DNA of 64,000 nt from a virus (Duplodnaviria; Heunggongvirae; Uroviricota; Caudoviricetes): the IMG/VR virus record IMGVR_UViG_2695420914_000005; one strand, written 5' to 3'. This document shows, piece after piece, positions 42,901 through 48,900 of the stretch. Made by a program: the position numbers. Numbering within the stretch: position 1 is the first letter of the stretch; every line of letters begins with the position of its first letter.

Positions 42901-45900
42901 GCCTGACCACTGCGCGGTTTATATCGGCGATGGAATGATTCTTCATCACCAGATCGACCGCCTAAGTTGTCGTGCTTATTACGGCGGAATGTATCAGAAA
43001 CATACGACGCATCACTTGCGTCACAGAGACTTGCTCAAGGGAGATGAGACGTGTCTGAGTTAGTTCATGTGCAGCTTGGCGGCCCTATGGCCAAACATTT
43101 TGGCCGCCACTGGCATCTAAAGGTGCGTAATACAAAACAGGCTCTGGATTTAATTGAGGCCAACAAGCCTGGGTTTAAAGCATGGATGAAGCGCAATATC
43201 AAAACCTATGACAGATACCACATCCAGATCACCAATAAACAGGGCCACAAGTGGTCTGTGGACGAGAGTGAATATCAGATGATGGGGCAGTCTGACAATA
43301 TTGCAAAAATCCGCATTACACCTGTTCCGCGAGGAAGCGGTGGATCTGCTTTTGGATGGTTTCAGACGGTTGTTGGAGCAGTATTAATGGTTGCCTCGAT
43401 ATGGGTGCCCGCTCTTGCGCCTCTCGGTTTGTCACTGATGATGGGCGGTATAGCGCAAATCATATCTCCGCAAGCCACTAACGAAAGTGTGAGGCAGGCG
43501 GATAACTCGAACTCTTATTACTTTGATGGACCTCAAAACACAACAAACCAGGGGAACCCTGTACAGCTTATCTATGGTGAGGAAATTTTAGTTGGCTCAC
43601 AGGTCGTGAGTTCTTCTATCACCATCGACCAGCTTATGTAATCAAGGATTTTTTGGACATGGAACAGTTCAAGAAGAAAAAAATACCGCTTCTTATTGCC
43701 GGTGCTGGTGGCAAGAAAAGTAAAAGCTCCAGCCGTACCCCGGTTGAAGCTGATGATACTGTCAATTCTCGTGCTATGGCAGCCATCCTCGACCTTCTTG
43801 GCGAGGGGGTTATCGGTGGCCTGGTAAATGGCGCAAAGTCGATCTTCATCGACGATTTACCGATCTTGAATGAAGATGGCTCTTCCAACTTCAGCGGTAT
43901 TACATGGGATTTTCGTGACGGCTCACAAGACCAGACGCCAATGGCTGGTTTTGATTTTGTCGAAACGCCTAAGTCCGTAAATATTCAGCTTAAAAAAACA
44001 CACGACGTTACGGTTTCAATCGATAACGATGAAGCTGATCGCGTTCGTGTCATCATGAAATTCCCCTCTTTACGTAGCGTTGATAAAAGCTCTGGCGATA
44101 CAAATGGCACTACGGTGAAGTACAAATTCCAGATCGCCAACGGAGACGCAACATTTTCTGATGTAGTGGCAGAAGGTGAGAAAAGCGTTGATATCACGCT
44201 AACGGCAAAGAAAACCGGCGTGTATTACCGTAGCTATGAGCTGAAACTGCCTAAGCCTGGTCGTGCATACAAGGTTCGGGTGATTCGTCTTACGGATGAT
44301 AACAGTAGCCAGTACCTCTACAACGATACCTGGGTTGATTCCATCGGTGAGATTGTAGATACCCCCATGAACTACCCTAACTCTGCACTTGTTGGCTTAA
44401 AGGTCAATTCAGAGCAGTTTGGTAGCACAATGCCTTCCCGTTCGTATTTGGTGCGCGGTATCAAAATTCGAGTGCCGTCAAACTACAACGAATACACCAA
44501 TACTTATGTCGGCGTATGGGACGGTACTTTTAAGCTGTTGTCTTCTTCAAACCCTGCGTGGATTCTCTACGATTTGCTTACCAATACTCGGTATGGTCTT
44601 GGGCAATTTGTGTCGGAATCCATGATTGACCTCGGCCAGCTCTACCAGATTGGTCGATATTGTGACGAAGAGGTCGATGATGGCTTTGGGGGTAAAGAGA
44701 AACGCTTTGCAATCAATACGCAGATCACCAGTCGACAAGACGCATACCGATTAATTCAGGATATTGCCGGTGCATTCCGCGGCATGGTGTTTTGGGCTGG
44801 TGGCATGGTTAACATCATGCAGGATAGCCCATCAGATCCAGTAATGATGTTTACCAACTCCAACGTCAAAGATGGACTGTTTACCTATAAAGGTTCTGCG
44901 CGTAAAGATCGCCCATCCGTTGCGCTCGTAACCTACAACAACAAGGAGGACGGTTATAAGCAAAACATCGAGTACGTTGAAGATCAGGACGCAATGCGCC
45001 GTTATGGTGAGCGTAAAACAGAAGTCGTAGCATTTGGATGTACAAGCCGAGGCCAGGCTCACCGAGTTGGTTTGTGGCTTTTGTATACCGCCAGAATGGA
45101 GTCGGATGTAATTACATTTACTGCCGGCTTAGACGCCTCATTTCTGATGCCCGGTGAAACCGTTCTGATTCAGAACAAATATCGTGCAGGTAAACGTAAC
45201 TCCGGTCGAATTGTGGAGTTTACCAAAAACAGCATCACTCTCGATGCGCCTGTGTCGTTAGCTAAAAGCGGCAGCTTTATTCGGATATTGAATCAGGAAG
45301 GCAAAATCGTTGAGCGCGATGTTCTTGAAACTGGCGAAAACATAACAAAGGTTACGTTTTCAAAAGCTCTGTCGTCAGCGGAAACGCCTGTTTTGAACGG
45401 TGTCTGGACAATTACAGAACCAGATCTCGAACCTATGCGCGTTCGCATCGTTAACATCGCTCAGGGGGAAACGTCGGGTAGCTTTGACATCACCGCTGTT
45501 GAAAACAATCCGTCTAAATATGAGGCGATCGACAATGGTGCAACGCTTATCCCGCAGAATACGACGGTATTGGACCCGACTTACTCCAAGCCGTCTAATT
45601 TGCAAATCACTGAAGGGACTTACCTCTCAAGCCCGGGCAACCTGTCAGTAAAACTGACTGCAACATGGGAAGGGAAATCTCCAGAGTATTGGATCAGTTG
45701 GCGACGTTCTGATGAAAACAATGTATCGAACTGGCAATCGGCGCGTGTAACCGAAGAGCAATACGAAATCGTTAATGTCGCGGAGAATGGACGCTACGAC
45801 TTCCAACTGTATGCGGTTTCATTCAACGGTAAAAAAACAGAAATTATCAGTACCGTTTATCAGGTGCTGGGCACAATGACACCGCCGGATGCACCAACGT

Positions 45901-48900
45901 CATTAACGGCCGTTGGAGACTATCGTAATGTGATACTGAATTGGGTTAATCCAGATTCGGTAGACCTTGATCACATTAATGTTTACGCATCCCAGACCAA
46001 CAATCTGGATACGGCGAAACTGATCGCAGAGTCTGCAAGCACCACCTTTACACATGCTGGTCTTGGGGATAGCGAAACGTGGTATTACTGGGTTCGAGCA
46101 TCGAACAAGCGAGGTATGTTAAGCCCTCCGAACTCAAACTTGGGTACAGAGGCGACAACTCGCGATGTACTGTCGTTCCTGGCTGGCAAAATTACATCTT
46201 CCGAGCTTGGTCAGGCTCTGCTTGAGGACATCAACAGCAAAGCCTCTCAAGAAGCAGTTGACGAGTTAAATGAGCATATCAACCAGAGCGTCGAATCTTT
46301 GGAGGGGGCGGTAAACGACGTTAAGGAAGATATAGCTGAATTAGATAAGCAGTTCAGCGATAACCTCGCGGGTTTTGAAATAAAATTCAACGAGCGTAGC
46401 GATGCTTTGGAGAACGCACAAACCGAGCTTAAAGGTGAGGTTTCGGCAACGATCGACAAGGTCAATGAAGCGTTTGAAAAAATTGATGCTACTGATGCTG
46501 CAATTGTTGAAATCGAAAACACCGTATCTGAACACGATAAAGCTCTCGCTAATACAGTCGAGGCAATAAAGGCTGCAAGAGACGAAGCGGCGGCTCTTAT
46601 TGCTAAGGAAAGCGAGGCTCGTGTTGAAGGTGATGCCGCAAACGCTAAACAACTGGAAGTGTTGCAGTCGACGGTAGAGGAAAGTTCCGCAGCCGTTGAA
46701 GAAATGAAAAAGACGGTTGCAGAGGTCGATCGTGCCAGTGCAGAACTGACTACGAACATTGAGGCGTTAGCTAAAACAAATATTGACCTGGCTCTTCGTC
46801 AAGATGAAGACCAGCACAAGCAGATGGTCAATAACGCGAAGATCGCAACAACACAGAAAACCTTTGCTGATGATATGTCTGCAATGGCCACGAAGGTTGA
46901 GGAAATTCGCGTAGAAATTGGCGAAGACATTAAGGCCAGTATTCTGGAAGAGTCCACCGCTCGTGCCGATGGCGATGAAGCGTTGGCAAAGCGTGTCACT
47001 CAGCTGCAATCTAAGTTTGAAGGAGATATCAGCGCGGCGATTAGTACAGAGCAGGAGGCTCGTACATCTGCCGATGAAGCTCTGACGACACAGATCACTC
47101 AGCTTGAGTCGAAAGTAAGCAACGATATCGTCGCAGCTATTAAGGAAGAGCAAGAAGCCCGAGCAACGGAAGATTCGGCTCTGGCAAGCCAGATCACCCA
47201 ACTTCAGGCAAAGGTTGATGATGATATTTCTGCTGCAATACGTAGTGAGCAGGAGGCCCGAGCAAGCGGGGACTCTGCGTTAGCCAAACAAATAAACCAG
47301 CTTCAGTCAAAGGTTGACGGTGATATATCCGCTGCCATCACTCAGGAGCAGGAGGCCAGAGCAAGTGCTGACCAGGCGCTCTCACGAGAAATTAACAGCC
47401 TGCGAGCACAAACCGGAACTGATATTGCCGCAGCGGTTGCTGTAGAGACAAAAGCAAGGACTGATGCCGATAGTGCATTGTCTACCCAGATTACGTCTCT
47501 TACAGCAAAAGCTAATGATCTCAAGGCGTCTCTTGCCAGAGAAACAACGGCTCGTGCAGATGGTGATACCGCTTTAACAAAAGAGGTTTCAAGTTTAAAA
47601 GCACAGACAGCGAAAGATATTAGTGCGGCCGTTGCAGTTGAAACGCAGGCTCGAACTGATGCTGACTCGGCGTTGTCGTCTCAGATCACCAAGCTGACCT
47701 CTCAATACAAAGAGGATATTAAAGCGGCTGTAGCAACCGAAACGAAAACGCGTACAGAGCAAGATGCTGCATTGGCGACTCAAATCACAAACTTAGAGTC
47801 TCAAACGGCAGCCAACATTTCCGCGGCGGTCACAACTGAAACGAAAGCGAGAACGCAGGCAGATAATGCTCTGAGTGGGCGAATCGATACTCTGAAAGCA
47901 GAGGTGAATGGAAATACCGCGACAATTCAACAGCAGGCAACAGCTATTGCTGATACCAACAAAAAAGTGTCAACCGCGTGGACGTTGAAAATGGAGACTT
48001 CAACGAGCGGAGGGCAGAAGTATGTTGCCGGTATTGCGCTTGGTATTGACACCACTGGGCTATCTCAGTTTTTGGTTCAGGCGGACAGGTTTGGTTTGGT
48101 CAACTCTGTTAACGGGAAGATCACAACGCCATTTGTTATCGAAAACAGTATCGCCTATATGAATGGAGCGTATATCAAGGATGGCACAATCACCAATGCA
48201 AAAGTAGGCGATCTGCAATCTACCAATTTTGTTAGCGGTAGATCTGGATGGCGGTTCGGCAAAAATGGAACGCTTGAGATCAACGGTAATAGCGGCGGCA
48301 ATGGGCGATTGGTTATAAATGGTCAGCGGATTGACGTTTATGACGATAACAACGTCTTACGAGTAAGAATTGGCCGTCTGTGATGGTGGAAAAAAAATTT
48401 TATATCGGTAAAAATAGGTAAGTATTTACTTAATGGCGGGCAAGGATAGCCCGCCAAATCAAGGAGCATATTCAACATGTGGTACAGGGAAGGTACTATC
48501 ACATTTACACAGGGCAGCAATACTCTGGTTGGGGCAGGGACAGCCTGGAACGTAACAGCTAATGGTGTGTTGCCGGGGATGATCGTCATTGGCCCCGACA
48601 ATAAGCTGTATGAGATCAAGCGCGTAACCAGTGATACGAACATTGTTCTCTCAGAACCTTATACCGGCGAAACTCAGTCTGAAGTTCCGTGCCGAATCAT
48701 TACGACCTATGAAGGCGACTTAACACAGTTTAGCGCGCGCTTTACTGCGCTAATGTCGCGTATGTCGGCTGATTCCAAGTCCATACGCAGTTGGTTGACT
48801 GCGCTGGATGAGGTGACAATCGAGCGTGAAGACGGTACAGAAGTGACCGTTAAGCCGCTAATGCAGATCGTCAACGAGCACAACGAAAACGTTGAGTGGT

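Follow-up and report, generated by a model that had tools for sequence, protein, structure and literature searches.

A J-like central tail fibre with a ten-unit, 33-residue repeat shaft and no fused lambda-type receptor domain in an SSU5-like phage-plasmid

We analysed a 64,000-nucleotide stretch of viral DNA (IMG/VR record IMGVR_UViG_2695420914_000005, Caudoviricetes; hereafter the window, numbered from its first letter), and report here on its tail fibre gene at 43659..48383. The product is a homologue of the lambda central tail fibre protein J, in which a J-like body is followed by a long repeat shaft and a beta tip domain, shortly after which the protein ends. It is a further member of the fibre class of phage T1 and the F-type pyocins, whose shaft exceeds those of the studied examples two- to threefold in length, and not a new kind of machine. 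We lean, by a modest degree, towards reading its product as a trimeric central tail fibre of the T1/F-type pyocin type and not the lambda type, belonging to an SSU5-like, plasmid-maintained siphovirus and having a fold-switching shaft and small receptor binders attached to its tip. The gene and its parts are the following.

43659..48383, + strand: the whole central tail fibre gene (J homologue), 1574 residues plus stop; from the open reading frame (ORF) list, the ATG start of annotated relatives and family phrog_31, 'central tail fiber J'.
43716..46232, + strand: J body, residues 20-858, with hub and fibronectin-type domains; from BLASTP to lambda J 3-835, Pfam (FNIII-A_GpJ, Phage-tail_3, fn3) and PDB sequence matches.
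46233..46925, + strand: irregular helical shaft, residues 859-1089; from its layout in 33-residue rows, a match to the repeat hidden Markov model (HMM) at residues 979-1007 and motif matches.
46926..47912, + strand: ten tandem repeats, nine of 33 residues and one of 32 (99 bp in DNA), residues 1090-1418; from identity at fixed lag, unit alignment and predicted helix.
47922..48326, + strand: Phage_Tail_Tip beta tip domain (PF09327, formerly DUF1983); from Pfam, beta strands in AlphaFold 2 (AF2) models, Foldseek and the alignment with T1 gp33.

The original prediction had seen about twelve repeats of 27 residues (81 bp) at 46940-47900. The repeats are real and had been placed nearly correctly, but their period is different. 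Self-identity of the protein was 49% at a lag of 33 residues compared to 5% at a lag of 27, a value that rules out the 27-residue (81-bp) period, and self-identity of the DNA was 53.5% at a lag of 99 bp compared to 25% at 81 bp. Since the span of ~330 residues equals 12 × 27, the extent had been judged correctly and the period misjudged. The units share the consensus DISAAIxxETxARAxADxALxxQITxLxSKxxx, in which A4, E9, R13, D17, A19, L20 and L27 are invariant in all ten. Upstream of the regular array, residues 859-1089 hold three to four degenerate 33-residue units, at about 947-1021 and with one lying near 1075, past a non-repeat stretch (1022-1074). Tandem Repeats Finder, run on 43000-53000, reported no array within the J gene, because the units are too diverged at the DNA level (39-66% pairwise identity); the repeats were measured by lag analysis and a protein HMM in its place.

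On either side of the shaft the protein aligned with lambda J. BLASTP matched residues 20-858 to lambda J 3-835 at 32% identity (E 8e-119, 839 residues), so the homology that had been claimed for the N-terminal two-thirds is real and covers 55% of the protein. A second block matched residues 1419-1507 to lambda J 841-931, with an insert of ~560 residues between the two blocks. Pfam located the hub and FNIII-A domains (PF24801, E 1.1e-29; PF13550, E 4.3e-35; fn3 borderline) and, in the 1576-codon frame, matched PF09327 over its full length (profile positions 1-138 of 139, E 1.1e-41) to residues 1424-1558. The protein terminates 18 residues past this domain, with ...LRVRIGRL. In lambda J, the same Pfam scan found PF09327 at 845-972 and then the LamB-binding domain PF12421 (Ig_GpJ_C) at 1001-1132 (E 4.5e-74), whereas no PF12421 match was obtained in the J homologue at E up to 0.01. 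The earlier statement that the C-terminus lacks a lambda-type receptor domain was thereby borne out, and Pfam, BLASTP and AF2 likewise agreed with the description of a J-like central fibre with a helical repeat shaft between J body and tip.

In the PDB sequence search, the best match was the F2-pyocin fibre (25vf, E 3.7e-154, with body, repeat and tip parts), and T1 gp33 (9l9p chain S) and lambda J were also found. T1 gp33 matched in three stretches reaching residue 1574, with 1386-1574 corresponding to chain residues 986-1168. Alignment with T1 gp33 runs through the repeats to T1 residue 1168 of 1172, and the terminal LRVRIGRL here is LRVQIGRL in T1. By fold, Foldseek paired the tip with the central fibre of lambda (8xcj/8xci) and with the tip fibre protein of SU10 (7z4b).

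After the last repeat, relatives end variously: with the tip only (156 residues, as here), with the tip and ~120 further residues, with the tip and Ig_GpJ_C, or with larger add-ons. In three of them (P0136, P0137 and P0144, Citrobacter freundii being one source) the repeats and tip are shared at 56-71% identity and a lambda-type Ig_GpJ_C domain comes next, which indicates that fused and unfused receptor ends have been exchanged on the same shaft. The architecture found in the window is one common variant of a modular family. Homologues from Salmonella and Yersinia pestis (pMT1-type plasmid; P0131, P0133, P0139) carried ~118 extra residues past the tip that Pfam did not name.

The predicted ORF at 43653-48383 (+) exists; it opens mechanically with TTG at 43653, giving the 1576-codon frame, and annotated relatives use the ATG at 43659. 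The 4.7-kb gene is a 100% match to a 'phage tail protein' gene on many closed Escherichia coli plasmids of ~110 kb each, and nucleotide comparison gave 24 plasmid records at least 99% identical to it. The J gene of the phage-plasmid Cyrano (pLF82) is 95% identical in DNA, and Salmonella phage SSU5 matches in parts. On the 5' side of the gene are homologues of lambda M, L, K and I together with a tape-measure gene, which places it in the tail-tip operon of an SSU5-like siphovirus that persists as a plasmid. Cyrano is induced by ciprofloxacin and forms siphovirus particles (PMC9928086), which places this type of J gene in functional virions. An assembly artefact or a pseudogene was ruled out, since the gene is identical in many closed plasmids and near relatives make virions; besides the 24 near-identical records, 34 of the 35 plasmids in a spread sample (at least 96% identical over the array) had the same 1401-bp span. 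In one E. coli plasmid, NZ_CP035843.1, an otherwise identical J gene was interrupted by an IS100 (IS21-family) insertion, and its tail is presumably dead.

The repeat unit carries a motif known from a fibre that refolds. In the F7 pyocin, a coiled coil of 163 residues converts to a beta-prism on cell contact, the tip opens and the tape-measure protein is released; mutants with a destabilised prism assemble and do not kill (He et al., PMC12874032). The same authors describe SxSxxMxxLxS as the motif of each strand, with Glu/Asp-Arg pairs at a spacing of four residues, and predicted the same fold switch in 21 of 24 phage fibres (PMC12874032). We found this motif twice in each 33-residue unit here, reversed at positions 4-14 and forward at positions 19-29, which by sequence is the pattern expected for a beta-hairpin. 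The invariant E9-R13 pair (i/i+4) fits the published salt bridge. The alternation extends into the degenerate units, with matches at 947, 962, 979, 994 and 1011, and residues 859-1419 contained 33 matches in all compared to 7.4 ± 2.7 (maximum 17) in 2000 shuffles. As controls, the fibre part of lambda J gave no match and T1 gp33 gave 12, all within residues 898-1014.

Structure prediction with AF2, run with a 62-row alignment and with the single sequence, gave helix for residues 1050-1401 and beta strands from ~1410; the helix had one short break, placed differently in the two models. A helical pre-ejection state is supported by these models. Both runs gave helix for the repeats, a result that neither supports nor excludes a beta-prism. 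By our own estimate, the 329 residues of the array would measure ~49 nm as helix and ~10 nm as 20 strands.

These observations are consistent with the following mechanism. The J-like body would close the tail tip, and from it the ~560-residue shaft, predicted to be helical, would lead to a PF09327 beta tip without a fused receptor binder. By homology to the pyocin fibres, the shaft would be a metastable three-stranded coiled coil that carries the lateral fibres and extends towards the cell over ~50-80 nm. Once the tip engages a receptor, the shaft would refold to a compact beta-prism, with opening of the tip and release of the tape-measure protein. If the shaft refolds like that of the F7 pyocin, the gain per 33-residue unit would be ~5 nm of reach as helix, or two beta strands of stored refolding energy, so that copy number would set both reach and stroke.

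Comparison of relatives showed that copy number does change, in steps of one unit. Among 120 protein clusters at least 81% identical, the length classes had 5-11 repeat-HMM matches, corresponding to 4-10 tandem units plus the degenerate upstream one. In pairwise alignments all large length differences fell inside the array, in approximate multiples of 33 residues (33, 66, 98-99 and 131), and a small indel was also seen at 880-909. Body and tip were 84-100% identical among these relatives, with the tip at 86-100% across the E. coli and Salmonella members including SSU5, and the shaft fell to 47-70%, its irregular part (residues 859-1089; flanks 86-100%) being the most divergent stretch. One lineage among near-identical plasmids was 99 bp shorter: NZ_CP081792 and two sibling plasmids carried a single exact in-register 99-bp deletion joining units 4 and 5. 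Copy number thus shifts over evolutionary time, as diverged units undergo unequal exchange. The suggestion that repeat number could vary by recombination was therefore right as far as the in-register deletion and the 4-10 copies go, but the array is not fast-varying; a contingency locus was ruled out because the units are so diverged in DNA and because length is constant in nearly all close plasmids.

The array had also been called expanded. This holds relative to the commonest SSU5-type allele (1385/1386 residues), which has five tandem copies, but not in general, as by our own count as many as 24 good copies occur in other proteins, and 18 and 21 in J-like ones. The ten-unit allele is itself abundant, with 1290 and 1980 sequences in its two clusters. 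Searching with a ten-unit profile, we obtained 2010 representatives (50% clustering), of which 959 scored at E up to 1e-10; in some, more than 20 stretches matched. One could imagine that the SSU5-like phage-plasmids hold a natural series of fold-switching fibre alleles of 4-10 units, with copy number selected to match the depth of O-antigen or capsule. We consider this doubtful; if true, it would be the first case of the stroke length of a non-contractile tail being tuned in nature.

The question of what reads the receptor turns on the genes that follow.

48477..52634, + strand: lateral (side) tail fibre, 1385 residues; from Pfam, identity to lambda Stf and SSU5_021, and PDB matches.
52695..52949, + strand: 84-residue protein of the T1 gp32 / N15 gp22 family; phrog_557, E 2.4e-24 (T1 gp32 in the same family, 1.9e-31).
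52949..53557, + strand: 202-residue protein of the T1 gp31 / N15 gp23 family; phrog_425, E 5.8e-49 (T1 gp31 in the same family, 9.3e-68).
53565..53798, + strand: 77-residue Cor-like lipoprotein with lipobox LTGC, MMKRLFLTIAVVLSLTGC...; phrog_1119, E 7.8e-30, BLASTP to T1 Cor, E 9e-11, and a hint of LPAM_1.

The side-fibre gene starts 93 bp 3' of the J gene, and a scan of the gap found no promoter-like or terminator-like site. By Pfam, its product has a Gp34_trimer-type domain and ends in an S74 intramolecular chaperone; the shaft is rich in Ala and Ser, and there are PDB matches to the S fibres of phages Mu and P1 and to T4 gp34. Residues 202-349 (~49080-49520) are 72% identical in protein to lambda Stf 205-352, and the N-terminus has no match to the first 200 residues of Stf; the first 160 residues are ~90% identical to SSU5_021, and the distal part varies among relatives. 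From its sequence, the shaft of this fibre looks like the product of mosaic exchange between lateral fibres of unrelated phages. The same gene contains, at 50576-50882 (+), ~2.5 tandem copies of a 120-bp (40-residue) unit, ...ATKLQTAR(S/T)IGGV.FDG(S/T)ANINLPGVNTTGNQNTTGNA..., with isolated copies later.

The three small genes correspond to a set that in T1 follows J (gp32, phrog_557; gp31, phrog_425; Cor, phrog_1119), and the T1 record notes similarity to N15 gp22, gp23 and Cor and to HK022 proteins. Homologues of the set also lie beside J in the T1-like phage tonijn and are present in SSU5, and a Photorhabdus relative has an analogous pair of 103 and 218 residues from neighbouring PHROG families. 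In databases the 84- and 202-residue proteins are called 'outer membrane protein' and 'membrane associated protein'; we looked in both for a signal, membrane or hydrophobic segment and found none, and neither had a Pfam match or a useful match in the PDB sequence search. On family membership, the 84-residue protein is a candidate component of a tip-attached receptor-binding module, the 202-residue protein a candidate receptor-binding protein and the Cor-like lipoprotein a candidate superinfection-exclusion factor. The Cor-like gene has no coding sequence entry in the PLSDB gene table of the 100%-identical NZ_CP019013, a table known to be incomplete. In a Photorhabdus asymbiotica record (47 kb, L009), the J homologue at 5892-9193 was called as pieces of 378 and 730 residues; the record shows no Pfam match in the 378-residue piece, the usual J-body domains were not seen, the tail operon is otherwise SSU5-like, and the element may be deleted and defective.

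In T1-like phages, receptor specificity is tied to the locus adjoining J (BASEL study, PMC8594841; screen of 255 phages, preprint 10.64898/2026.04.02.716166), where receptor-binding proteins that attach non-covalently to a J-like tip are encoded beside J together with exclusion genes (same two sources); the 255-phage screen also marks the J C-terminal tip as a compatibility feature (preprint 10.64898/2026.04.02.716166). By analogy of gene content, the terminal receptor would be read here by the 84- and 202-residue proteins (52695-53557), held non-covalently on the tip platform, with Cor (53565-53798) as the matching exclusion lipoprotein and the 1385-residue fibre giving a first, reversible binding. 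FhuA as the receptor is a lead only, drawn from Cor, because the identity of the 202-residue protein to T1 gp31 is far below the level that defines receptor classes.

A simpler account of the shaft is that it is a static spacer: a stable coiled-coil rod that sets the distance of the tip and docks the lateral fibres without any refolding, its copy number being near-neutral drift in length. Both AF2 runs giving helix only, the constant array length in nearly all close plasmids, and the coil region being the least conserved part, as expected of a loosely constrained spacer, would all fit such a rod, and lambda and T5 work without such a switch (He et al., PMC12874032). Against it, the seven invariant positions coincide with those that the published fold-switch motif, in its alternating orientations, assigns to small residues, Leu and the Glu-Arg pair, a plain coiled coil needs no small residues at solvent-exposed positions, and the homologous F7 pyocin segment refolds and loses killing when refolding is blocked. 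We regard a purely static rod as unlikely, yet a serious contender. Receptor binding can also be assigned differently. That the 1385-residue fibre is the sole receptor binder, with the J tip only triggering or piercing, is close to the original proposal that recognition is delegated to this fibre. A J without a receptor domain is what it would require, the fibre gene follows J closely with no terminator-like site between them, its distal part is variable and its N-terminus conserved, and Cyrano has J and the fibre without the small cassette. But the fibre looks lateral, T1-like phages and F-type pyocins assign terminal recognition to small tip proteins and keep lateral fibres separate, homologues of those proteins and of Cor lie just downstream here, and a Cor-type gene implies an outer-membrane protein receptor, which is not the expected target of an Stf/S-type lateral fibre. 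Delegation in this simple form is probably wrong, and a central fibre with no part in recognition seems to us quite improbable.

The beta tip itself might instead bind the receptor, for instance the lipopolysaccharide core, with no need for an add-on protein. A tip so similar between the E. coli and Salmonella members is in keeping with a conserved ligand, for which the core would serve, and about half of the relatives lack the cassette. SSU5 is, reportedly, core-lipopolysaccharide specific according to the title of Kim et al. 2014, and either the tip or the side fibre could be reading lipopolysaccharide directly. In lambda, T1 and the pyocins, however, the same tip domain is followed by receptor domains or proteins that are distinct from it, and other relatives fuse extra C-terminal domains after it, Ig_GpJ_C included, which argues that the tip is a platform and not a binder; we hold direct binding by the tip to be rather unlikely. 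As with the SSU5 title, several results weigh against a fold-switching fibre with attached small binders. The AF2 monomers give the helical state only, and the fold switch rests on the sequence motif and homology. Compared pairwise, the 84- and 202-residue proteins resemble T1 gp32 and gp31 weakly (E 2e-4 and 0.014), the pairs being joined only by profile searches. The cassette sits 3' of the side-fibre gene and not beside J, and it occurs in only 72 plasmids compared to ~163 with this J array. It is also missing from Cyrano, which makes virions and whose tip block is 99-100% identical as protein; there, at 20853-21056 (compared to 52634-53868 in the window), the side-fibre gene is directly followed by a holin-like gene. 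Assembly thus does not require the cassette, and perhaps infection does not either.

Two further ORFs lie antisense to the shaft-coding region.

46247-46759, - strand: antisense ORF of 170 residues, from the ORF list.
46767-47201, - strand: antisense ORF of 144 residues, from the ORF list.

Neither had a Pfam family match, and both probably arose by chance from the skewed codon composition of the repeats.

Clinical E. coli, Klebsiella, Enterobacter, Salmonella and Yersinia commonly harbour SSU5-like phage-plasmids, which can bring resistance genes with them but whose host range is poorly understood (PMC9600943). Placing the fibre in the T1/F-pyocin class names two small genes and cor, besides the big fibre, as candidates for receptor specificity, and gives a testable entry mechanism, refolding of a coiled coil. 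The natural length variants are a ready set for relating shaft length to infection.

Of the known systems, the T1 central fibre gp33 (9l9p chain S) has the same J-like body, helical repeat shaft, PF09327 tip and conserved C-terminal end. The last 350 residues of gp33 could not be resolved because of their flexibility; an alpha/beta fibre is the predicted structure (PMC11945409). The small-gene families phrog_557, phrog_425 and phrog_1119 occur both here and in the gp32/gp31/Cor region of T1, with N15 gp21-gp24 and HK022 as further counterparts. T1 differs in its short shaft (1172 residues in all, ~12 motif matches compared to 33 here) and in having the three small genes directly 3' of J, whereas the 1385-residue lateral fibre gene intervenes in the window and half of the relatives have none of the three.

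The F2 PyoF10 (25vf) and F7 pyocin fibres likewise have no fused receptor domain and a coiled-coil shaft with SxSxxMxxLxS, and in F-type pyocins small separate proteins are proposed as tip-bound binders. In the F2 pyocin, three lateral fibre trimers dock on a long three-stranded alpha-helical shaft, the fibre has a beta-prism end without a receptor domain, and PyoF11 and PyoF12 are likely the separate binders (Gu et al., PMC13455828). The fold-switch segment of the F7 pyocin, at 163 residues (about five units), is shorter than the ten regular plus degenerate units here (~470-560 residues); moreover, F-type pyocins are bacteriocins with the small genes directly 3' of the fibre gene, whereas here the fibre serves a DNA-injecting phage.

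Lambda J (8iyk, 8xcj) is homologous in its body over 835 residues and shares the PF09327 central straight fibre domain, but it has no helical repeat shaft (no repeat matches), no motif in its fibre part and a fused LamB-binding Ig_GpJ_C domain. The closest comparison is with SSU5 gp20 and the common 1385/1386-residue allele, which represent the same gene in the same context, 84-97% identical in body and tip; they have five units compared to ten here, with deletions of ~66 and 98 residues in the array and of 25 residues at 884-908.

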